Of a stretch of 64,000 nucleotides of DNA, positions 4,642 to 55,716 are shown piece after piece; the first letter of the stretch is position 1; the number at the start of each line of letters is the position of its first letter. This stretch comes from a virus. The stretch spans positions 4,636 to 68,635 of IMG/VR virus record IMGVR_UViG_3300032174_000004; one strand, given 5' to 3'. Below the pieces are notes generated by a model, which did no database searches, was not told where the DNA came from, and saw nothing but the letters and a program-made list of their open reading frames with translations. Both the position numbers and the translations under genes were made by a program.

Positions 4642-4670
4642 TTATTACTCGTTGTTGCATCTTGTTTCAT
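4642..4670 (-). promoter_or_regulatory. Phage promoter motif copy upstream of terS
   Basis: ATGAAA-CAAGATGCAACAACGAG(17)-TAATAA. Confidence 0.6.
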
Positions 4671-9436: not shown

Positions 9437-9651
9437 TCGATCTTCTTCCCGCTCATCCCGGTCATCTGCTGCTCACGGCGTAGGTCTAACAGCGTAGCGG
9501 CGATGCCGCGCATCATGTCCGCGTTGCGGGTCGCCCACTGGTTACCTGGCTTCGCCCGTAGGTCATCCAGCCGTGAGGCCTGATCTCGCAAGAACTTGAT
9601 CTGCTCATCCAGCTTGTGTATGTCAACTTTCATGGGTGTTGGTACGCCCAT
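9433..9651 (-). CDS. Hypothetical protein
   Basis: Operon packing. Confidence 0.55.
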   Translation of the reverse strand: MGVPTPMKVDIHKLDEQIKFLRDQASRLDDLRAKPGNQWATRNADMMRGIAATLLDLRREQQMTGMSGKKIE

Positions 9652-10472
9652 TTTTCATATCCGCGGCGGATCTGCTCATGGAAGCGTTTCACAGCTGCAG
9701 GGTCGCGGTCTAGGTCCGAGAGGCTTTCGATGTGGAGGACCTTTTTCGTGTACTGCCGGGCGAGCTCCGGAGTCCACTCTTTGACGAGCGTCCCTTTCGT
9801 TTCTTGGAGCCAGCGGACATAAAGTGGGCTTGTGATAAGCAAGTGAACTGACGAGGAAAATCGCCTCGACCTTGTCGACTTACCAACTCGAGATGCAGGA
9901 TTTCTAGAAGCATCTCCGTATCCAGTGCTGCCCGCCGCCTTTGTTGCAACTGGCGAATCGCAATGCCCATCTTGCTGAGGATTTGCTCCGTCTTGAGGCG
10001 GCTCGCATGGAACTGGAGATTTAGACGCTCTCCGAGAAACAAGCTCCTGCTGCGTTTGGTTGACTGGGGATTCGTCATCATTTAACTCCACAAGCACAAG
10101 AGCAAACATATCTCCAGGCGTGCCATTCTTGCGGCGCGTACACGCACAAAAGGGATGTGTTTCGAATTCGTCATCCAACCACAATGTGATCGACTGCCCG
10201 ATGGCAGAGCTGTCTTTCCAAGACTGTAGCATTACTTCCATATCCAACACTTGTTCCCCATCACACGCCCGCGCGAATACCGCCTTAAACCGCGTCCCCA
10301 TCTTGCCGTTGCGGCGCTGCTGGAACTTCTTGAAAGGATGGATCCGGTCGAAGGCCTCCCCCGCGAGTCTCAACTCAACCGTTCGCCCTGAATCGAGCGA
10401 CCACGTCGCATTTATCAGTTCCACAAGCCCGTGAAACGCGATGATCCCTTCAACCATGGCGCTGGCGCCCAC
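9630..10472 (-). CDS. Hypothetical two-domain protein
   Basis: 280-aa ORF in operon. Confidence 0.7.
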   Translation of the reverse strand: MGASAMVEGIIAFHGLVELINATWSLDSGRTVELRLAGEAFDRIHPFKKFQQRRNGKMGTRFKAVFARACDGEQVLDMEVMLQSWKDSSAIGQSITLWLDDEFETHPFCACTRRKNGTPGDMFALVLVELNDDESPVNQTQQELVSRRASKSPVPCEPPQDGANPQQDGHCDSPVATKAAGSTGYGDASRNPASRVGKSTRSRRFSSSVHLLITSPLYVRWLQETKGTLVKEWTPELARQYTKKVLHIESLSDLDRDPAAVKRFHEQIRRGYEKWAYQHP

Positions 10473-10626
10473 GAGGAATATGCAGAGGGAAAGACATGTG
10501 CTCTACCAGCCGGCGGTTGCGACGCAAGGCGCGCCACTCACGAAATCGAGGCCATACCCAGTCACACACCAACGCGCCAGCGATAAGCCCACCTACCACG
10601 CACCAGAAGATATCCATCTTGCTCAT
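10450..10626 (-). CDS. Small membrane protein
   Basis: IFWCVVGGLIAGALVC transmembrane segment; ATGA overlap. Confidence 0.55.
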   Translation of the reverse strand: MSKMDIFWCVVGGLIAGALVCDWVWPRFREWRALRRNRRLVEHMSFPLHIPRGRQRHG

Positions 10627-12167
10627 GGGGCTTTCTCTTTGTGTTTGGAGCGCCGAATGGTGAGGTACTTGAGGTAGCGCAGCGTCATAAGAGACGGGGC
10701 TGCGGGTTTCGAGTTGCTCCACTCTCGAGGCGGCATCTTCTTGTGCTTGCTCTGGTAGGCATACGCAGCCCAGCCGGGCTTGTAACCTTTCTCCTGGGCG
10801 TACCCAAGCAGCTCCGCGTAGAACGCTCGCTTCACCAACTCCAGCTCTGGCTCGATCTCCTTGATGGGCTGGAGTTCGCCATCGACCACTCGGAACTGCT
10901 TGGCCGTCTTCTCAAAGTAGTAACCACACTCCGGGCAAGTGAGCGAACCCGAAAAGACCAGCGTGCATTTCTTGCAGCGCAACCGCAGGATCTCCTCCTT
11001 GCGCTTACCCGTCCGCGATCTCCCCTTCCCTTTATGACTGACGTTCTTGATACCCTGCAGGCTCCAATACCGATCATCCTCAAAATACCCGTGCTCATAC
11101 ACGGCGCCTGAGTGGTCGTTAATGATGAAGTCTTTCTTGCCAGTAGCATTATCGCGCCGCGCCGCCCGCCCGATCCGCTGCAGATAGCGCACAACGCTCA
11201 AGGTCGGATTAGCAAGCACGACACAGCTGACAGCTGGGATGTCGAGCCCGTACGTTGCGAGATCGACATTGCACAGAACCTGCGTTTCCCCACTCCCTAC
11301 CCGATCGAATACCGCATCGCGATAGTGATCGGGAGCGCCTCCATCGCAGTGCTCTGCAGAGACTCCGACTGCACGAAATTGCTCAGCGAGCCAGATCGAC
11401 TTCGTCACCGAATTCGCAAAGACGATCGTGCGCCGGTCCGAACAACGCTCCATCCATGTCTCCACGATGCCCCCCACAATGGGATCCATCGCAATATCCA
11501 CGTCTTTTTTGTTGTAATCGTCGGCCGTCTTGCGCGCCTTCTGTAGGTCTGGCCGCGAGGGAGCGTAGTGGCGCGAAGGCATCAAGAAGCCCTCCTCGAT
11601 CAACTGCCGCGGCGTCGCTATCTCCAAGAGGCTCTCAAAGCCTATATTGAGCGCGCGCCCATCATGCCGGCCTGGCGTCGCAGTGAGGCCGATGATGGTC
11701 GCATCCGGGAATAGCTCAATCAGCGATGTCCGTAGCGCAGTGATGTACATGTGGGCCTCGTCGAGGATCACATAGTCAATCGGCGGCAGCACCAACTTCT
11801 GGCGCTTGATAACACGCGAAATCAGGGTATCAACAGAGGCAACCTGCAACTGTGAGTACGGATTCGTGCTGCGCTCGCTAGCCAAGATCATGTTGTAATC
11901 GCCAAAGGCCCACGTATCCAGCTTCTGTGCCGTCTGCCGAAGCAGCTCCTTGCGTGGAGCCATGAACATACACGACATGCCACGTTCACGTGCCCGATAC
12001 AGGAGTTCCATCGCCAACAGCGTTTTGCCCGATCCAGTTGGGGACGCCACCAGAAGCCGCCGTACGCGCTCTTGTTCTTTCAATATCCGCTCGATCCCCT
12101 CCCCTTGGAATGGCCACAGGGTCCACGGACGACGGCCCGTACCGAGCGAAGAAGCGTTCTGGCTCAC
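10623..12167 (-). CDS. SF2 DEAH-box helicase with Zn finger (RadD/YejH-like)
   Basis: SPTGSGKT, DEAH, TATP, QRIGR, CKKC...CPEC, GYKPGWA; GTG start inferred. Confidence 0.93.
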   Translation of the reverse strand: MSQNASSLGTGRRPWTLWPFQGEGIERILKEQERVRRLLVASPTGSGKTLLAMELLYRARERGMSCMFMAPRKELLRQTAQKLDTWAFGDYNMILASERSTNPYSQLQVASVDTLISRVIKRQKLVLPPIDYVILDEAHMYITALRTSLIELFPDATIIGLTATPGRHDGRALNIGFESLLEIATPRQLIEEGFLMPSRHYAPSRPDLQKARKTADDYNKKDVDIAMDPIVGGIVETWMERCSDRRTIVFANSVTKSIWLAEQFRAVGVSAEHCDGGAPDHYRDAVFDRVGSGETQVLCNVDLATYGLDIPAVSCVVLANPTLSVVRYLQRIGRAARRDNATGKKDFIINDHSGAVYEHGYFEDDRYWSLQGIKNVSHKGKGRSRTGKRKEEILRLRCKKCTLVFSGSLTCPECGYYFEKTAKQFRVVDGELQPIKEIEPELELVKRAFYAELLGYAQEKGYKPGWAAYAYQSKHKKMPPREWSNSKPAAPSLMTLRYLKYLTIRRSKHKEKAP

Positions 12168-12525
12168 CGAAATTGTCCCACTGGAATGTAGGTTGATATT
12201 GGCCAGGAGGAGAGGGAGGCCCCTCGTAACCACGGACTATTGTTATCCAATAGGCATCATCGCGTAATAGCGCCCTGAGGAGACGCTCGCGCAGCTCAGG
12301 AGTCGTTTTCTTGACGAAGCGAGCGACGACGTGCTGCCCCTCGACTGGCCAGAAGTAGAGCATGGGATCAAATAAGCGCTCCCACCGCAGGGTGTCTTCC
12401 GAGCAGCCCATCCTTTCATCGGTGCACTCTACCCAGATGAGCCGGGGCTCATAGTCCATTCTCAACAGCTCATACAGGCGTTTGCCGCCCTCAGGGAAAA
12501 GCTGCTTGGGGCGGGGCTCACGCAT
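11986..12525 (-). CDS. Hypothetical protein overlapping the helicase 5' end
   Basis: MREPRPKQLF...; start inferred. Confidence 0.5.
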   Translation of the reverse strand: MREPRPKQLFPEGGKRLYELLRMDYEPRLIWVECTDERMGCSEDTLRWERLFDPMLYFWPVEGQHVVARFVKKTTPELRERLLRALLRDDAYWITIVRGYEGPPSPPGQYQPTFQWDNFGEPERFFARYGPSSVDPVAIPRGGDRADIERTRARTAASGGVPNWIGQNAVGDGTPVSGT

Positions 12526-12956: not shown

Positions 12957-13132
12957 GGATGGCCCTTTGGGTTACGGTCTGTGATGGCGTGATTCGGAAC
13001 CAGCTTGACGTATGTCGTGCCGAGCCGCTCGAATCTCACACGTGAGCGTTTCGGGTTGCGCTTCAGGACTTGACCTGGCCACTTCATACGACCGGCCCAG
13101 CCGTCTGTATGAACCCAAACCGCATCACTCAT
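12953..13132 (-). CDS. 59-aa hypothetical protein (absent from ORF track)
   Basis: MSDAVWVHTDGWAGRMKW...; ATGA overlaps at both ends. Confidence 0.6.
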   Translation of the reverse strand: MSDAVWVHTDGWAGRMKWPGQVLKRNPKRSRVRFERLGTTYVKLVPNHAITDRNPKGHP

Positions 13133-13344
13133 GCTTGTTTCCTAGCCATAAGAAGCGCGGCCTGAGTGCGGTTGACAACCCCTAACACCCTGAAGATGGC
13201 GGTGACGTGAGTTTTCACTGTCTTTTCCGAGCGTCCAAGTTCGAGGGCTATCTCTCTGTTCGTCTTGCCCTGACAAATGCCAGCGAGCACTCGCTCTTCG
13301 TGAGGGGTGAAGGCTCTAGTCGGCTTGTTGCTGCTTGCGTTCAA
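13129..13344 (-). CDS. Stand-alone LuxR-type HTH regulator
   Basis: FTPHEERVL...GKTNREIALELGRSEKTVKTHVTAIFRVLGVVNRTQA; TTG start overlapping the upstream stop. Confidence 0.88.
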   Translation of the reverse strand: MNASSNKPTRAFTPHEERVLAGICQGKTNREIALELGRSEKTVKTHVTAIFRVLGVVNRTQAALLMARKQA

Positions 13345-13496
13345 TCCGTAAGATCCTCTGCGGAAAACAGCCAGCGCAAGAAAGCGTAGAAAAGGATCAA
13401 TCCGACGACGCCCAGCGCCAGCCAGAAATTCATCAAGCACGCAACCAGGAGAATCGCCGAGAGACCGCTGCGGATTATCTCTGCCGCTTTTTTCAT
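13341..13496 (-). CDS. 51-aa membrane protein, probably leaderless (absent from ORF track)
   Basis: MKKAAEIIRSGLSAILLVACLMNFWLALGVVGLILFYAFLRW; ATG 6 nt after the -10 box. Confidence 0.65.
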   Translation of the reverse strand: MKKAAEIIRSGLSAILLVACLMNFWLALGVVGLILFYAFLRWLFSAEDLTD

Positions 13497-13502
13497 GGTA
13501 GT

Positions 13503-13531
13503 ACTTTAGTCCTTGTTACAGCTTGTTGCAA
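13503..13531 (-). promoter_or_regulatory. Phage promoter motif copy
   Basis: TTGCAA-CAAGCTGTAACAAGGAC(17)-TAAAGT. Confidence 0.75.
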
Positions 13532-13654: not shown

Positions 13655-15112
13655 TCATTTGCGCTCTTCTTCCTGGATCAGGATCAGCGAGTGCTTTGCC
13701 CTGGTAGTTGCTACATAACAGAGGTTGGCCTCCTGTTGTTTCTGCCAGTCCTGCCGCGCCCACTTCGCAGGGCACCTGTCGCTGTTGAGCCAGTACACCG
13801 TGTCGGCTTCGAGGCCCTTCGCGCGATGGATGGTCGAGAGTACGACTGCCTCCGCAGAACCAGCGGAGAACAAACGCTCAATGGTCTGCATCAGCTCGCC
13901 GATTGTCCTGCTTGTCTCAGGCAACTCGTGTAGCAGGCACAGGATGGTCTCAACCTTGTCATCGATCGCTTCCACCTTCGCCTCGTCCCCCTTCGCCCTG
14001 GCCTTTTCCTTCTCGCGCGTCCGGTAGGTCTCCAAGTTCGCTTCCAACTCGTTGACCGTCTCCGCGTGCATCCGCTTGATGAGCGATGTGAGGCCCTGAC
14101 CAATCTCGCGACCCATGATTCGAGCGGCTCGACCATTGCGCAGCAGCCGGAAGGCGAGCGAGACGATCGGCGCCGTAGTCCGGCAGATGATGAGATCATT
14201 GGGATTGAAATCAGATGGGCCCCACGCAGTACCGCGCGACTCGACACTGCCCTCTGTCGCGCCAGGTGCCGCGAGAATGTGGCTCACCCATTGCCTCGCG
14301 TGATTCACCACGCTTGTTGGGCAACGGTAGCTCACCGACAGCGGCAAGCGAGTGCACTGAAATTCAGACGCGATGAGGTTCATGCTGTCGCTGTCAGCAC
14401 CGCGGAAGCCGTAGATAGCCTGCGCTGGGTCTCCCACCGCCATGATTCGCGACTGAGGAGTTAGGATCTTGCGTAGCAGCGCGCGCTGAATAGCATTCGT
14501 GTCCTGCGCCTCATCCACGAACGTGAAGTCGTACTTCTGCAGCTCGATCCCATCGCGTACCGCGAAATAGAGCAAGTCATCGAAGTCGCACAGGTTGGAC
14601 TTGTTGGACCAGCCGAGAAGCTCGCTCGCGAGCTCCACGGCCGCCTCAATCGTTGCGCCCTTCTTGTCCAACTGCAATTCGTGGTAGTCGACTAGCTCAA
14701 GCCAGTGCTCCGGCAGGTCGGGCAGCAGGCAACCGATCCCGCTCTGGCGGCCGAGGCTGACGAGCCTTGTGATGAACGGCCCGTACATCTCGGCGCGCGC
14801 ACCCTCAAGGTTCTCGTTGACCAGCTTGCGCAGCTTGTTCTGTTCGATGTTGCGTACGCCACGGTCGCGGGTCACGGGCATGAAAGTGAGCGAGTGGAAG
14901 GTGCGGGCATTCACGCCGCGTGCCTTCAGCTCCTCAGCGATCGACTTGTTGAAGGCGAGAAGAAGGCTTGAGCCCTTCGCACGGGCCGAGCACTCCACCA
15001 GCGTGGTGGATTTCCCCGACCCCGCCACCGCCTCCACGATGGCATTCCCAGTCCCATTCTCGACAAAGTCGAAGATCCGTTCTTGGTATGTCGACCAAGT
15101 GCGAGTGAGCAT
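13655..15112 (-). CDS. UvrD/Rep-family SF1 helicase
   Basis: AVAGSGKS, VDEAQD, VGDPAQAIYGFRGA, SYRC, STIHRAKGLE, YVATTRAK. Confidence 0.95.
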   Translation of the reverse strand: MLTRTWSTYQERIFDFVENGTGNAIVEAVAGSGKSTTLVECSARAKGSSLLLAFNKSIAEELKARGVNARTFHSLTFMPVTRDRGVRNIEQNKLRKLVNENLEGARAEMYGPFITRLVSLGRQSGIGCLLPDLPEHWLELVDYHELQLDKKGATIEAAVELASELLGWSNKSNLCDFDDLLYFAVRDGIELQKYDFTFVDEAQDTNAIQRALLRKILTPQSRIMAVGDPAQAIYGFRGADSDSMNLIASEFQCTRLPLSVSYRCPTSVVNHARQWVSHILAAPGATEGSVESRGTAWGPSDFNPNDLIICRTTAPIVSLAFRLLRNGRAARIMGREIGQGLTSLIKRMHAETVNELEANLETYRTREKEKARAKGDEAKVEAIDDKVETILCLLHELPETSRTIGELMQTIERLFSAGSAEAVVLSTIHRAKGLEADTVYWLNSDRCPAKWARQDWQKQQEANLCYVATTRAKHSLILIQEEERK

Positions 15113-15136
15113 TGAGACCTCCTGTGTGACGTAGCT

Positions 15137-15166
15137 AGCGTAACATGATGTAACAAGGAGTCACAA
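15137..15166 (-). promoter_or_regulatory. Promoter for the UvrD gene, with inverted repeat-motif pair in the spacer
   Basis: TTGTGA-18-TACGCT; spacer reads CGTAACAT-GA-TGTAACAA on the + strand. Confidence 0.5.
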
Positions 15167-15365
15167 GCGCTACCGCTCCTCTCCCTTGCGCAGTCCCGCA
15201 AGCCATGCTTGCCACATCAACTCAAGCTCGATCCATCGATATTCGCCGCGCCGGTTGTGCGGCGCGATCACGCTAAACCGATCCTGTTCGTATCCAGGAA
15301 AGGCTTTCTCTACCCACTGCTCAAAGTGGGCGCGCGCTACCTCTTCGGAAAAGCCGTCACTGTAT

Positions 15366-15836
15366 TCAGCCATCGCGTCCTCGTGCAAAGCAGCAATCGG
15401 CCAAAGTAACTTTTTCTTGTTCTGTGAAGTCTCGATATTCGCCAAGGGATTCGTCCCAAGGAGGAACTACGCCGCACCAAACGTGCGTAATGGGGTTGGT
15501 CGATTCCGCCTGGCGAAGCGGTAACTGATGCTGATCGGAGGAAGAATGTTTGGTAGCGGCAGCAGATAACCCAATCTGTCCAGGCCTTTGTGCCAACTTC
15601 AGCGCCTCAGTTGGGCTGACTGGCTTCTGGCCATGAGGAGCGCCGAGAATCCACGCGCGACGAGTTGCAGGCCAGTAGTCCACTCGGCGACGGCCAAATA
15701 GCCGAATGTGCATCGGGTAGATGTTCAACATCACGGGTTTTACTCCGCAGTGTTCACCAAGCCGCTTCAATTCCTGGAAGCAGTTCTCGTTGGCGACTGC
15801 TTTCCGTGCCCGTTGTTCAGGTGTGCGCTTCCCCAT
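15366..15836 (-). CDS. Hypothetical protein
   Basis: GAGGG SD; RRVDYWPATRRAW. Confidence 0.6.
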   Translation of the reverse strand: MGKRTPEQRARKAVANENCFQELKRLGEHCGVKPVMLNIYPMHIRLFGRRRVDYWPATRRAWILGAPHGQKPVSPTEALKLAQRPGQIGLSAAATKHSSSDQHQLPLRQAESTNPITHVWCGVVPPWDESLGEYRDFTEQEKVTLADCCFARGRDG

Positions 15837-15839
15837 TGA

Positions 15840-16140
15840 GACCCTCTTACTTTCAATTCACTAGAAGAGCTTCTTACTCTAACTCTTCTTCTTCTCTTAC
15901 TCTTATCAGGGGGTTTAAAGCCCATGGGACGGCAGGGACCACGGAAGGCCCCCCCAAACCCCCCCAGCCTTTAGCTGGGAGGAGGAAGGCCTCCAGATCC
16001 TGCGTCCCATGGGCTCATGGTCCGTATAGGTTCTTTCGACCGACGACGCACTTATTTAGCCTCGCATTGCCGCTACGGTGTGAACCGCCCCCACGAGGAC
16101 GCACGGCTGTGGAGCTGAGGGGCGGGGAGCGGGGAGCGAA
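15840..16140. other. Structured non-coding region, candidate replication origin / primer RNA
   Basis: Pyrimidine tract 15871-15905; 17-bp inverted repeat 15919-15936/15999-16015 enclosing C7A3C7; second hairpin 16070-16132. Confidence 0.5.
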
Positions 16141-16147
16141 TTAGAGG

Positions 16148-16176
16148 TTGCAACAACCTGTAACAACGTGCAGAAT
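16148..16176 (+). promoter_or_regulatory. Phage promoter motif copy driving a small RNA
   Basis: TTGCAA-CAACCTGTAACAACGTG(17)-CAGAAT. Confidence 0.7.
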
Positions 16177-16182
16177 CTGGTT

Positions 16183-16266
16183 CTGCTGGCGTTGCGCCGC
16201 CGGCTGACCCGAGCCACTGCTACTCACAGTACTCGGCGTGAAACGCCTCCTCTCGGAGGCGTTTTG
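16183..16266 (+). ncRNA. Putative ~80-nt three-hairpin antisense RNA
   Basis: SL1 GCTGGCG/CGCCGGC, SL2 CCGAG.ACTG/CAGT.CTCGG, SL3 terminator AAACGCCTCC/GGAGGCGTTT; bounded by promoter and terminator. Confidence 0.55.
16241..16266 (+). terminator. Intrinsic terminator, possibly bidirectional
   Basis: 10-bp stem AAACGCCTCC-TCTC-GGAGGCGTTT followed by T. Confidence 0.75.
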
Positions 16267-16268
16267 CG

Positions 16269-16298
16269 TTTATACGCCTCCGCTTTCGCTCTCGGCAA
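16269..16298 (-). promoter_or_regulatory. Putative sigma70 promoter firing into the structured region
   Basis: TTGCCG-18-TATAAA; start predicted near 16262. Confidence 0.5.
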
Positions 16299-16467
16299 GC
16301 TTTTTGCGAACGGCCATGTTGATCCAGTGCGTGAGGATTCCAGTCGGAGTCTGGATGATCCGCTCCTCATGGCCGCAGACGGCGCAGCGGTAATCGTTCT
16401 GGATTCGCCCTGATTTCAAGGGGATAGGCTCATGGCGCATGATCTGCCCGCAGTGGTACTCAGCCAT
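16270..16467 (-). CDS. Small Zn-ribbon protein
   Basis: HCG...CAVC. Confidence 0.55.
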   Translation of the reverse strand: MAEYHCGQIMRHEPIPLKSGRIQNDYRCAVCGHEERIIQTPTGILTHWINMAVRKKLAESESGGV

Positions 16468-16684
16468 TATTCGGCAGGATCACTTCGAAGGCCGTATCGC
16501 CGCAGGGAGCAAAATCTGGATTCGGATCGCCGCGAGCGGCCAGGAATAGCCCTCGGCGGTTGCAGTCACAGGCCTCATTGCCTTCTGTCCACCGAAACTC
16601 GGCCCCCTCATCCCAATCCCCTGGCTCGGAGATAACCGCTTTCTCGCCGTCAGAGCGGCTAATGATGGTGACTTCAAAGGTCAT
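16460..16684 (-). CDS. Small conserved phage protein
   Basis: FRWTEGNEACDCNRRGLF. Confidence 0.7.
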   Translation of the reverse strand: MTFEVTIISRSDGEKAVISEPGDWDEGAEFRWTEGNEACDCNRRGLFLAARGDPNPDFAPCGDTAFEVILPNNG

Positions 16685-16745
16685 TTACTGAAGGAATAAC
16701 CCGGCCGGGGCAAAATCAGCGAGTCCGGCCGGGAGGAAGTCCCAT

Positions 16746-17036
16746 TCAGACTGGGCCGCCTTCCTGGCCGCCAGGCCCCGCAGCGCCCCCTATACCGGCC
16801 GATTGCTCGGCGGCCTCTTCCTGAGGGCTCTCAGCGGCTTCCTCGGCTGGGGAGCCTTCTGCCATGCCCGCAGGCATTCCAGACGGGCCTGCGTGGCCGT
16901 GGTAAGGATTGGAGGCGTTCTCCTCGTGTTCCCGGGTCCCGATGGAGTGCGCACCCGAATGGTCGCTGTGGTGAGGCTTATGGCGCCCTGGGTGGCTCTG
17001 CCGCGGATGCTTGACGTGGGGGATCTCGTCACTCAT
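16746..17036 (-). CDS. His-rich/acidic disordered protein
   Basis: HHSDHSGAH, EGSPAEEAAESPQEEAAE. Confidence 0.7.
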   Translation of the reverse strand: MSDEIPHVKHPRQSHPGRHKPHHSDHSGAHSIGTREHEENASNPYHGHAGPSGMPAGMAEGSPAEEAAESPQEEAAEQSAGIGGAAGPGGQEGGPV

Positions 17037-17335
17037 TCCTGGTCTCCCTGGTTGTGGTGGAGCGCAGGCAGCTCGAGCTTCGTGGGATGCTCCGAGAGAT
17101 GCATATCGGATTTGCCCTCATTGCCCTTGCGCGAGAAGCCTGGGCTATCGCCAGCCTCCTCGCCAGCTTCCATGGGTTCGTGCTCGCCGCCCTCGGATTC
17201 GGTCAACCCATCGGTCGGAATATGGGCTCGAGACATGTGATGGTGGGTGCCACGAACGTGCGCACCTGAGTGGTCGGTGTGGTGGCTCAACGGATGACGG
17301 GTGTGGTGGTCGCCCTTGGGCGGTGAGTGCTTCAT
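17033..17335 (-). CDS. His-rich disordered protein
   Basis: HHTDHSGAH; start MKHSPP with GGAGA SD. Confidence 0.7.
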   Translation of the reverse strand: MKHSPPKGDHHTRHPLSHHTDHSGAHVRGTHHHMSRAHIPTDGLTESEGGEHEPMEAGEEAGDSPGFSRKGNEGKSDMHLSEHPTKLELPALHHNQGDQE

Positions 17336-17363
17336 GGGATCTCCAAAGTATGGGAAGGGGGAA

Positions 17364-17564
17364 TCAGCCGATGCCGAACTTGCGCTTTGCAGCCGCGCGA
17401 ATCTGCGGGAGCTTTGAGGAGTGATGCATCGACGCAAGGCCGATAGCTACTTTCGCGTGATTAGCGTCCGGTATCGGGTAACTACCAGGGCCCGGCGCTT
17501 TGCTAGGAACGGCAAAGGTGGATCTGCTGAGCTTCGAACGAGCGGTCGGCGTCAGTTTGGCCAT
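17364..17564 (-). CDS. Small basic DUF6582-like protein
   Basis: LTPTARSKLSRSTFAVP...SYPIPDANHAKVA. Confidence 0.75.
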   Translation of the reverse strand: MAKLTPTARSKLSRSTFAVPSKAPGPGSYPIPDANHAKVAIGLASMHHSSKLPQIRAAAKRKFGIG

Positions 17565-17627
17565 TGACAATCTCGTTTCAATCCACGCGCTTAGGTAAGC
17601 GCGAAGCTGAGATTGTACCGCGCAGAT

Positions 17628-17813
17628 TCAGCCAGCGCGACGAAACCCGTAGGCACGGGTGGCGACGCCGCAATACTCCTGCAACTTGCGCCCCAAGTTG
17701 TGATCCTCAGGGTTCGGTCGCTGTGAGTTCTCGCGCAGGACGAGCTCGGCCATCCGCGCGAGCTGACGCACGGTGAACTCAGTCGGAAGCGTCATTTCTT
17801 TGCGAGTATTCAT
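17628..17813 (-). CDS. Hypothetical protein divergent from recT
   Basis: ORF at the strand switch; start uncertain. Confidence 0.5.
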   Translation of the reverse strand: MNTRKEMTLPTEFTVRQLARMAELVLRENSQRPNPEDHNLGRKLQEYCGVATRAYGFRRAG

Positions 17814-17832
17814 ATGGATAGGGTGCCACTAC

Positions 17833-17861
17833 TTGCAACAAGATGCAACAACGCGTAACTT
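17833..17861 (+). promoter_or_regulatory. Phage promoter motif copy upstream of recT
   Basis: TTGCAA-CAAGATGCAACAACGCG(17)-TAACTT. Confidence 0.75.
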
Positions 17862-17883: not shown

Positions 17884-18906
17884 ATGGCTAAAGCACAGCA
17901 AACCGCCGCCGCTCGTCCGTCGCTCCTGTCCGAGGAGCAAGTAATGCACCAGCTCGTTCAGGCGCAGACCGTCTTCAAGACCGTCGCTACCCAGGAACAA
18001 TCACCACTTCAGTGGGATAGTGAACTCGACTTTGCCCGCGCGATCGTGATGAATGACCCCACCGACCGGCTGCGCCAAGTGGTGCCTGAGACGCTGGCGA
18101 ATGCGATGCGCGATCTCGCCCACGTCGGTCTCACACTCAACCCCGTCAAGCACTTCTGCACGCTCATTGCGCGCTGGAATGACCGCGCCAAGGTACTTGA
18201 GGCGCATGTCATGTTCATGTACCGCGGCCTCGTGTACTTGGCGACCCAAGCCGGCGTGCACGATATCCAGTGCGACGTGATCTACAAGGCGGATGCTTTC
18301 AAGATCGCCCGTCGCAGCGATGGCGACTACTTTGAGCACGAGATCAACATCACGGTCCCGCGCGACAAGGACAACTTCTTCCTCGGCGCATACGTGGCGG
18401 CCCGCATGCCCAAAACCGGTGAGCGCAAGGTGGAGTGGGTACCGGCCGAGGACATCTTCAAGATGCGAGAGGAGTCCGACTCGTATCTCGATCGCGAGGG
18501 AAAGGTACGGCCCAATTCCCCCTGGGTGAAGTGGTTCGATGAGCAGGCCAAGAAAAGCGCTTTGAAGCGCGCCACCAAACGATGGGAAGAGTCCATCGAT
18601 GAGGGCTCGCGATGGCAACGGCTGCACCACGCGGTCGACCTAGATCACCGTAGCGAGGGTGGAACCACGATCGAGGGAGTGGCGACGGAAGTCGAGGTCC
18701 AGAAGCTCTCCGTCGATCAAATCACGGAGATCGAAACCAAAGCGCAGGAACTCGGCCACATAGACGTTAATAAATACCTGCGCAAGGTCTGCGCCGCGTA
18801 TGGCACTGAGGTCCTGGCCGACATTCCCGCCAAGTGCTACCCGGAAATCCTTGAGCGCATCGCCGCTTCCAAAGCCGAAGTCGAGAAGCGCAAGAACAAG
18901 AAATGA
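17884..18906 (+). CDS. recT: RecT-family single-strand annealing protein
   Basis: GLTLNPV...YRGLVYLA...VIYKADAF...SPWVKWFDEQAKKSALKRA. Confidence 0.9.
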   Translation: MAKAQQTAAARPSLLSEEQVMHQLVQAQTVFKTVATQEQSPLQWDSELDFARAIVMNDPTDRLRQVVPETLANAMRDLAHVGLTLNPVKHFCTLIARWNDRAKVLEAHVMFMYRGLVYLATQAGVHDIQCDVIYKADAFKIARRSDGDYFEHEINITVPRDKDNFFLGAYVAARMPKTGERKVEWVPAEDIFKMREESDSYLDREGKVRPNSPWVKWFDEQAKKSALKRATKRWEESIDEGSRWQRLHHAVDLDHRSEGGTTIEGVATEVEVQKLSVDQITEIETKAQELGHIDVNKYLRKVCAAYGTEVLADIPAKCYPEILERIAASKAEVEKRKNKK

Positions 18907-21461: not shown

Positions 21462-21490
21462 TTGCAACAAGCTGTAACAAGCGCTACGCT
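21462..21490 (+). promoter_or_regulatory. Phage promoter motif copy
   Basis: TTGCAA-CAAGCTGTAACAAGCGC(17)-TACGCT. Confidence 0.75.
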
Positions 21491-23289: not shown

Positions 23290-23478
23290 TTGATCCTAAC
23301 TCGGAGAATCGGAGAAACCGTGATGATCGGGGACGAGGTGACGATCACGGTCTTGAGGGTAAAGGGAAGCCAAGTGCGCGTTGGCATTAACGCCCCGAAG
23401 AGCGTTGCCGTCCATCGTGAAGAAGTTTACGACAGGATCAAACGCGAGCAGCAGGGCGAGCCGCAGAACGCGTCTTAG
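23290..23478 (+). CDS. csrA: Carbon storage regulator CsrA/RsmA
   Basis: [22 protein letters not shown]...[20 protein letters not shown]. Confidence 0.95.
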
Positions 23479-55687: not shown

Positions 55688-55716
55688 ATATTACGCTCTG
55701 TTACAGGTTGTTGCAA
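55688..55716 (-). promoter_or_regulatory. Phage promoter motif copy upstream of the HNH gene
   Basis: TTGCAA-CAACCTGTAACAGAGCG(17)-TAATAT. Confidence 0.75.

Follow-up and report, generated by a model that had tools for sequence, protein, structure and literature searches.

A candidate cis-antisense control cassette in the early region of an apparently virulent soil phage

The stretch of viral DNA considered here (the window; 64,000 nucleotides, bases 4636-68635 of the 68,635-bp IMG/VR record IMGVR_UViG_3300032174_000004, rated complete by CheckV) contains a 434-bp gap, 15837-16270, that is poor in open reading frames (ORFs). The gap lies in an early-type recombination and helicase region, with a 156-residue ORF on one side and a 65-residue zinc-ribbon ORF on the other, and it carries two facing promoter-like sequences, P(+) and P(-), together with a GC-rich hairpin at which both of their predicted transcripts would meet. 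We put at about one half the probability that the gap is a cis-antisense (countertranscript) control cassette, which tunes or times the leftward transcript. The observations comprise the sequence elements, the way they fold and the fact that four phages conserve them. An original prediction, made from the sequence alone, had taken the same layout for an RNA-primed, antisense-controlled origin of the ColE1 type; every element that it listed is found on inspection where it was placed, and the evidence favours gene control over an origin. The phage of the window is referred to as G0, and the related sequences compared with it as G001, G002, L083 and L086.

The candidate small-RNA promoter, P(+), outscores every other sigma-70-like site on the + strand of the gap. 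It matches the consensus at only 8 of 12 positions and is missed by a strict promoter scan. On the window alone the promoters are weak calls; P(+) is credible because it belongs to a significant, orientation-consistent promoter family. The motif TGYAACAA-NN-TGYAACAA has 10 matches in the window with up to two mismatches, against 0.07 expected, and none of 100 shuffled sequences reaches 10; the + promoter of the original prediction is a perfect member of this family, which extends across the phage. The family sites read TTGCAA-17-TAnnnT, and those with a recognisable -10 point to the next gene on their own strand. P(+) is the sole site with no gene ahead of it: the next 1.2 kb rightward encodes - strand genes, and, on reading the sequence, no ribosome-binding site with a start codon is seen beyond the predicted P(+) start. 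The family is kept in G001, G002, L086, L083 and a further contig, L079. The protein that recognises the TGYAACAA repeats may be an activator or a repressor for early shut-off; candidates for it are the conserved small proteins encoded at 17364-17813.

Two further observations concern these sites. A LuxR/GerE-type helix-turn-helix protein is encoded directly behind the motif promoter at 13513 and has no homologue in G001 or G002. A second type of site, of the form GCGTAACA..TGTAACA..GTCACAAGC, occurs at 15139-15166 in G0, in G002 (L075, about 11311-11340) and in L086 (183-212); its distance upstream from the start of the following leftward gene, which in G0 encodes a UvrD-type helicase, is 30-120 nt, and its orientation is opposite to that of the gene.

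The small RNA is predicted to end at an 11-bp hairpin of the AACGCC...GGCGTT type, for which the original prediction had given 16241-16266 as a terminator. The hairpin itself spans 16240-16265, has a folding energy of -17.5 kcal/mol and a T-rich tail, TTGCGTTTATAC, and lies 65 nt downstream of the predicted + start; it is the only hairpin of its type in the window. It fails a rule that requires five Ts, and the L086 hairpin is likewise not called a terminator; those of G001 and G002 are called terminator-like, on the small-RNA strand. On the - strand the hairpin has no U tail. The three consecutive hairpins attributed to the small RNA are borne out by folding: the 93 nt from 16183 to 16275 give -45.9 kcal/mol (z -5.0), and none of 200 shuffles folds as well.

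Facing P(+) is P(-), which had also been claimed and is present. It matches at 9 of 12 positions and is the single best sigma-70-like match on both strands in all four gaps compared (G0, G001, G002 and L086), where a site was scored if it had at least 8 of 12 matches, at least three of them in the -35 and at least four in the -10, with an A at position 2. In the four phages the -35 reads TTGCCG, TTGCCC, TTGAAG or TTGCCA, and is followed after 17-18 nt by TATAAA or TAGAAA. The hairpin tail, TTT(A/C)TAC, reads as the P(-) -10 on the opposite strand. In all four phages 2-6 nt separate the end of this -10 from the hairpin, which places the predicted start at the foot of the stem and would give the leftward RNA a 5'-terminal stem-loop. 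In G002, P(-) (TTGAAG-17-TATAAA) lies wholly within a spacer of about 60 nt outside any ORF, and is the one independent case.

A motif scan of viral contigs gave 66 single-hit loci and two true relatives, G001 (67,283 bp) and G002 (64,768 bp), which are syntenic with G0 at about 70% nucleotide identity. RecT scans yielded the metagenome contigs L083 and L086, together with two contigs too short to judge (L079, the same as L084, and L081, the same as L085). A scan for the hairpin pattern returned, among the matches listed, only G001 and G002 again, and a helicase scan returned more distant phages (at most 50% identity) without the TGYAACA motif. There are 67 RecT relatives in a large protein collection, several of them encoded on contigs of 10-67 kb. 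Searches of 185,579 prokaryote genomes, where the best RecT match is 36% identical over a short stretch, and of cultured phages, where the best is 30% identical, revealed no close relative.

The cassette is present in four of the five related sequences that reach far enough (G0, G001, G002 and L086, not L083). In G001, G002 and L086 an ORF-poor gap of 0.5-0.8 kb occupies the same place and, read in the G0 orientation, contains TG(Y/A)AACA repeats at a 10-bp phase with a -10 of TACCAT, TAGAAT or TAGCAT. Small-RNA counterparts of about 100-115 nt follow, then the AACGCC...GGCGTT hairpin and its tail. The outer stem, AACGCC/GGCGTT, is constant across the four phages, and the inner stem is changed on both sides (TCC/GGA, CCCG/CGGG, GAGG/CCTC), with an extended stem in G002. 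This comparison is based on per-sequence folds, as MAFFT alignments of the cassette misplace G0. Covariation of the hairpins, which had been proposed as a check, is seen as compensatory changes in the terminator stem; the other long hairpins are confined to G0. All four small RNAs fold better than their shuffles (z -5.0, -4.8, -4.4 and -3.2). From the positions of promoters and terminators, the small RNA and leader are predicted to overlap by about 80 nt in G0 and about 92-104 nt in the relatives, and the ORF-poor leader measures 425-650 nt across the four. The RNA I/RNA II-like geometry of the original prediction is accordingly real at the level of sequence and conserved in four related phages, as a geometry of predicted transcripts.

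The four gaps can be aligned only in the promoter motifs and the hairpin; blastn finds motif and terminator pieces only, and tblastx nothing coherent. A conserved layout of promoter, hairpin and facing promoter with unalignable bodies would be expected of a cis-antisense pair, because both of its partners change together. The other attributes of an antisense regulator are also found in the predicted transcripts: the small RNA has its own promoter and terminator opposite its target, perfect complementarity to it, and stable stem-loops.

Both strands of the G0 gap are highly structured. The - strand folds at -199 kcal/mol (z -6.1) and the + strand at -181 kcal/mol (z -4.25), in each case with none of 100 shuffles as good. 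The preferred strand is inconsistent, being the - strand in G0 and the window + orientation in G001 and G002. In the G0 fold a long-range leader helix joins 16193-16204 to 16040-16051, and its G-U pairs are possible on the - strand only. As had been claimed, there is no credible ORF: those in the G0 gap are only 31-53 residues long and have no homologues, and the comparison across the four gaps gave no conserved ORF on either strand.

Several structures of the leader are specific to G0. The G7-T3-G7 of the original prediction is present at 15949-15965, as C7-A3-C7 on the + strand. It is enclosed by an inverted repeat that had been described as 17 bp long; the repeat exists, with arms at 15919-15931 and 16003-16015 that are perfect over 13 nt and reach about 17 only if extended with one bulge. 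The hairpin closed by this repeat (15919-16015, about 45 bp) and a second one found around 16068-16133, claimed as 16070-16132, likewise occur in G0 only. So does the AT-rich purine tract: by AT content, the segment 15845-15924 ranks in the top four of all 80-bp windows in the 64 kb. The part of it described as A/G-rich (15871-15905) is pyrimidine-rich on the + strand and indeed purine-rich on the - strand, but there it is interrupted by U. On its sequence, this tract is simply the 5' untranslated region (UTR) of the G0-specific 156-residue ORF, with a good ribosome-binding site. The gaps of the relatives contain no AT-rich tract apart from the promoter itself, and the leaders of G001, G002 and L086 no long G-runs.

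Other identities for the gap were tried and rejected. No known RNA family matches the window at the gathering score, and at E <= 10 there are chance-level matches only. Against a repeated or mobile palindrome, copies of the long-hairpin arm in the window are no more frequent than expected by chance. There is no small hydrophobic ORF of the kind expected for a type I toxin-antitoxin system. A sponge RNA for CsrA/Rsm was considered, and neither strand of the four gaps shows enrichment of GGA, despite the presence of a CsrA homologue in the phage. This CsrA/RsmA homologue (Pfam CsrA, E 1e-22) has an 81% identical version in G002.

We infer both transcription starts, the termination, the pairing and the regulatory outcome from the sequence. 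The cassette lies at the junction of two leftward transcription units of the early region. P(-), a host-type sigma-70-like promoter, would start a leftward RNA at the base of the GC-rich hairpin, which would then form the 5'-terminal stem-loop of this RNA. P(+), facing it from about 80 bp away, would make a three-hairpin RNA of about 86-90 nt that ends at the same hairpin. Because P(+) carries the phage's own TGYAACAA repeats, it would probably be switched along with the other phage promoters. Between this small RNA and the first 80 nt or so of the leftward RNA (80-105 nt across the phages), complementarity would be perfect. Pairing would probably begin by loop-loop contact. Since part of the covered segment (16193-16204) is paired with 16040-16051 in the G0 fold, it would also rearrange the long-range structure of the leader. 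Pairing may further make the duplex accessible to RNase III or, acting with polymerase collisions, reduce P(-) output. As a result, expression of the downstream 156-residue protein and of the UvrD-type helicase would be tuned or timed. Decay, altered translation of the 156-residue protein and UvrD, control of antitermination, and interference are all candidate outcomes.

A number of observations weigh against this antisense reading. The starts at P(+) and P(-) and the termination of the small RNA are predictions, and strict promoter scans find neither promoter in G0, G001, G002 or L086; the stretch 14800-17600 is present in two soil-metagenome DNA runs, one of them possibly the source, with no RNA run listed. 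In G0, G001 and L086 the P(-) -10 holds the stop codon of the zinc-ribbon gene and the -35 lies in its last codons, so that the conservation of P(-) where it overlaps this gene could be partly due to coding. In L083, whose RecT is the closest (72%), the 180 nt that remain up to the contig end contain no TGYAACA promoter, and the P(-) position scores only 7 of 12. The informative sequences number only four, and in G001, G002 and L086 the next leftward genes have motif sites of their own right after the leader. In L083 (1-260) a terminator hairpin is flush with the stop of a His-rich gene, and a GATATAA direct repeat upstream replaces the TGYAACA repeats; L083 may represent a variant cassette with another promoter type.

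The overlap with the zinc-ribbon gene is central to one alternative, in which the hairpin is a shared terminator of the upstream leftward operon, the + unit produces a stand-alone trans-acting small RNA, and P(-) is a silent by-product of a stop codon and the U-rich tail TTTATAC, read as GTATAAA on the other strand. The P(-) hexamers do overlap the last codons and stop of that gene in three of the four phages, TTT(A/C)TAC doubles as a terminator tail, and L083 keeps the hairpin beside a gene stop with P(-) at 7/12. This explanation is nonetheless unlikely. G002 retains TTGAAG-17-TATAAA in a purely intergenic spacer and P(-) is top-scoring in all four gaps, while the hairpin, lacking a U tail on the - strand, would be a poor terminator for a leftward operon; the small-RNA sequences are unconserved, which argues against a common trans target. 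Phages 186 and P2 have face-to-face promoters with interference, and a switch of this kind, in which collision or occlusion allows the TGYAACAA regulator to set P(-) indirectly and RNA pairing has no role, would suit the conserved spacing of the facing promoters (about 80-105 bp) and the termination of the P(+) transcript over the P(-) -10 and start. Interference between convergent phage promoters is an established mechanism, according to the portion of the literature source used here (PMC5001618). As the whole explanation it is rather unlikely, since the conserved, co-varying terminator hairpin and the well-folded RNA bodies suggest that the RNA product matters; interference and RNA pairing are not mutually exclusive. 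Very unlikely is a small protein or leader peptide hidden on the - strand of the gap, whose translation would be blocked by the small RNA, in the way that CopA acts on tap in plasmid R1. An ORF of 41-83 residues does run across the P(+) complement on the - strand of all four gaps (in G0 at 16056-16217), with its start codon inside the region covered by the small RNA in three of them. The peptides, however, share only the residues encoded by the DNA motif and vary in length over the whole of that range, tblastx gives no match beyond motif and terminator, and the ribosome-binding sites are weak.

The ColE1-like origin would use the same parts differently: the P(-) RNA would be a pre-primer and the small RNA an RNA I-like inhibitor, and a persistent RNA-DNA hybrid would form some 350-420 nt downstream at the G-run or the AT-rich tract, for host RNase H to process and host Pol I to extend. 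The overlap of about 80-105 nt and the ORF-poor leader of 425-650 nt in four phages speak for it, this geometry being equal to that of ColE1 in the part of a review on which the comparison draws (PMC5043065). So does the apparent shortage of replication genes. A six-frame Pfam search of the genome matched none of seven families (DNA_pol_A, DNA_pol_B, Prim-Pol, Toprim_2, DnaB_C, Phage_rep_O and D5_N), and no polymerase, primase, replicative-helicase or initiator family was found by Pfam and/or PHROGs in 57 ORFs of the early region and terminase genes, which agrees with the absence of primase, polymerase and initiator noted in the original prediction. RNA-based prophage origins are moreover described for cluster A mycobacteriophages (PMC7157519, in the section used). 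Still, an origin of this kind is improbable. The G-run, the long hairpins and the AT-rich or purine tract, which had been put forward as R-loop features, are present only in G0, where the tract is the 5' UTR of an ORF, and the relatives do not share a hybrid site at a fixed distance. Rfam RNA I (RF00106) has no match at E <= 10 in 15700-16400, blastn against 72,556 plasmids gave none, and the gap is unrelated to any cultured phage. P(+) carries operator repeats, whereas RNA I of ColE1 is constitutive in the same review text (PMC5043065). The suggested plasmid-like prophage is not borne out: integrase, resolvase and ParB_N have no match in the genome, and none of the prokaryote genomes holds a close relative. 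G0 looks virulent, with no matched lysogeny or plasmid-maintenance genes and no prophage relative, and a copy-number brake would therefore have no evident role. It is just as improbable that the clade, soil phages of about 65-68 kb that lack a recognisable polymerase, primase, replicative helicase or initiator, starts its lytic replication in ColE1 style, from a protein-free origin, with a P(-) transcript of host RNA polymerase as primer and the phage-regulated small RNA as an RNA I-like gate; on that lytic version relatives would keep the control cassette constant and differ in the sequence of the priming site.

An initiator may also be present in another form, as many conserved G0 proteins have no assigned function and one of these could be an unrecognised initiator. 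An example is a 280-residue protein encoded beside the SF2 helicase, with 226 relatives in a library of 1.8 billion proteins. Its structure is predicted with a confidence score (pLDDT) of 36.6 from the sequence alone and of 87.6 with a 62-sequence alignment, and in the confident model a disordered linker joins an N-terminal beta-barrel to a C-terminal helical domain. The protein has no Pfam family, no sequence match in the PDB and no Foldseek match at E <= 0.001, and only unnamed viral clusters in the ESM Atlas. Its structural matches are weak, the best (VIA, Z 7.5) being in the noise range; they include barrels of Upf1/Sen1/Dna2-type helicases and FAD-binding barrels.

Many systems of antisense gene control share this geometry. 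R1 CopA/CopT, pT181 RNAI/II and pIP501 RNAIII exert countertranscript control over plasmid rep leaders. The cassette resembles these in having a predicted antisense RNA that arises from within the leader, with hairpin loops available for kissing, and alternative folding of the G0 leader is plausible, with the helix 16193-16204/16040-16051 broken by pairing; it differs in that no rep gene lies downstream in G0 and no attenuator terminator is recognised on the - strand. Phage precedents for the antisense logic are lambda OOP, P22 sar and P1 c4, which, in the portion of the source consulted (PMC12197685), are likewise phage RNAs of about 70-90 nt with their own promoter and terminator, directed against an early operon and pairing with its RNA. 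Lambda OOP, which lies beside replication genes, was first taken for a DNA primer and later shown to be an antisense regulator (same portion of PMC12197685), a precedent that itself counsels against reading an origin here. OOP covers the 3' end of cII, whereas the G0 small RNA would be directed at the 5' end of a transcript with its own promoter; the two are unrelated in sequence, and the target here is a long ORF-poor leader.

ColE1/pMB1 shares with G0 the position of the small-RNA 3' end at the start of the long RNA and the lack of a recognisable initiator protein of the replicon (PMC5043065, in the part drawn on). It differs in having no sequence or Rfam relation to the cassette, in its constitutive RNA I as against an antisense promoter with operator repeats, and in being a plasmid, whereas G0 is an apparently virulent phage of about 68 kb in which priming is putative and the candidate hybrid-forming G-run is unconserved. 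The prophage origins of cluster A mycobacteriophages are similar in that these phages, too, have a transcribed non-coding region and no Rep protein; deletions and plasmid tests demonstrated that replication depends on that region (Wetzel et al. 2020, PMC7157519, in the section used). Those phages are temperate, carry parABS and infect a different group of hosts (same section of PMC7157519), unlike G0, which has no parB or integrase matches.

The genes around the gap are arranged in two directions. To the left, all on the - strand, are a RusA fusion, a radical-SAM-like protein, the SF2 helicase and the UvrD-type helicase; to the right, on the + strand, are RecT and two exonucleases, and the rest of the genome is occupied by terminase genes and a structural module. 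The UvrD-type helicase, 61% identical in amino acids to gp71 of the Nipunavirus NP1, is the sole G0 gene that resembles a cultured phage. The polymerase, primase and other replication genes of NP1 have no counterpart in G0, and outside the helicase gene the genome shows no relation to NP1. Absent from G001 and G002, the UvrD-type gene is a mosaic acquisition beside the cassette. In the three full genomes the accessory genes between the KTSC gene and the His-rich genes differ, and UvrD, the LuxR-type protein and the 156-residue ORF are found in G0 but not in G001 or G002. The 156-residue ORF has no assigned family and, besides itself, only three weak partial homologues; a scan of viral contigs with the protein found no relatives. 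The zinc-ribbon ORF has homologues in G001 and L086. The start context GAGG(G)TCTC(A)-ATG is common to many genes (at 15836, 17884 and 21513, and in the relatives), and may be a conserved translation-initiation region. Coordinates are collected in Table 1.

Table 1. Features of the cassette, its promoter family and neighbouring genes in the window
Feature	Position	Strand	Remarks
P(+), small-RNA promoter	16148-16176	+	TTGCAA-17-CAGAAT; two TGYAACAA repeats 10 bp apart over -35 and spacer
P(-), sigma-70-like promoter	16269-16298	-	TTGCCG-18-TATAAA; 9/12; predicted start near 16262, at hairpin base
Predicted small RNA	16183-16272	+	about 86-90 nt, three hairpins; ends predicted from promoter and terminator
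Small-RNA hairpins	16185-16204, 16209-16236, 16237-16268	+	from the fold
GC-rich hairpin AACGCC...GGCGTT	16240-16265	both	11 bp; predicted + terminator and 5'-terminal stem-loop of - transcript
Leftward leader	15837-16262	-	about 425 nt; highly structured; first ~80 nt complementary to small RNA
GC-rich leader hairpin	16068-16133	-	minimum-free-energy structure; no alignment to relatives
Long near-perfect hairpin	15919-16015	-	about 45 bp; encloses G7-U3-G7; G0 only
AT-rich, purine-rich 5' UTR	15840-15905	-	three AGUAAGA repeats and GAGGG ribosome-binding site of 156-residue ORF
156-residue ORF	15366-15836	-	first gene downstream of leader in G0, followed by UvrD-like helicase
65-residue zinc-ribbon ORF	16270-16467	-	last gene of upstream leftward operon; stop codon inside P(-) -10
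Family sites with recognisable -10	13513, 17834 (recT), 21463, 55698, 4652	-, +, +, -, -	orientation consistent
Family motif matches	4642-4669(-), 13513-13530(-), 15139-15166(+), 16149-16166(+), 17824-17851(+), 21463-21480(+), 55698-55715(-)		motif matches
280-residue protein	9630-10472	-	beside SF2 helicase
SF2 helicase	10623-12233	-
LuxR/GerE-type protein	13129-13440	-	directly behind motif promoter 13513
UvrD-type helicase	13655-15112	-
RecT	17884-18906	+
CsrA/RsmA homologue	23290-23478	+

If the cassette works as read, it would represent a compact form of antisense control in a phage group that has no cultured member. One hairpin would then serve both as the terminator of the small RNA and as the protective 5' stem-loop of its target, with the P(-) -10 merged into both the terminator tail and a stop codon. 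The tie between the small RNA and a phage-wide operator family would in turn offer a handle on the timing programme of these phages.

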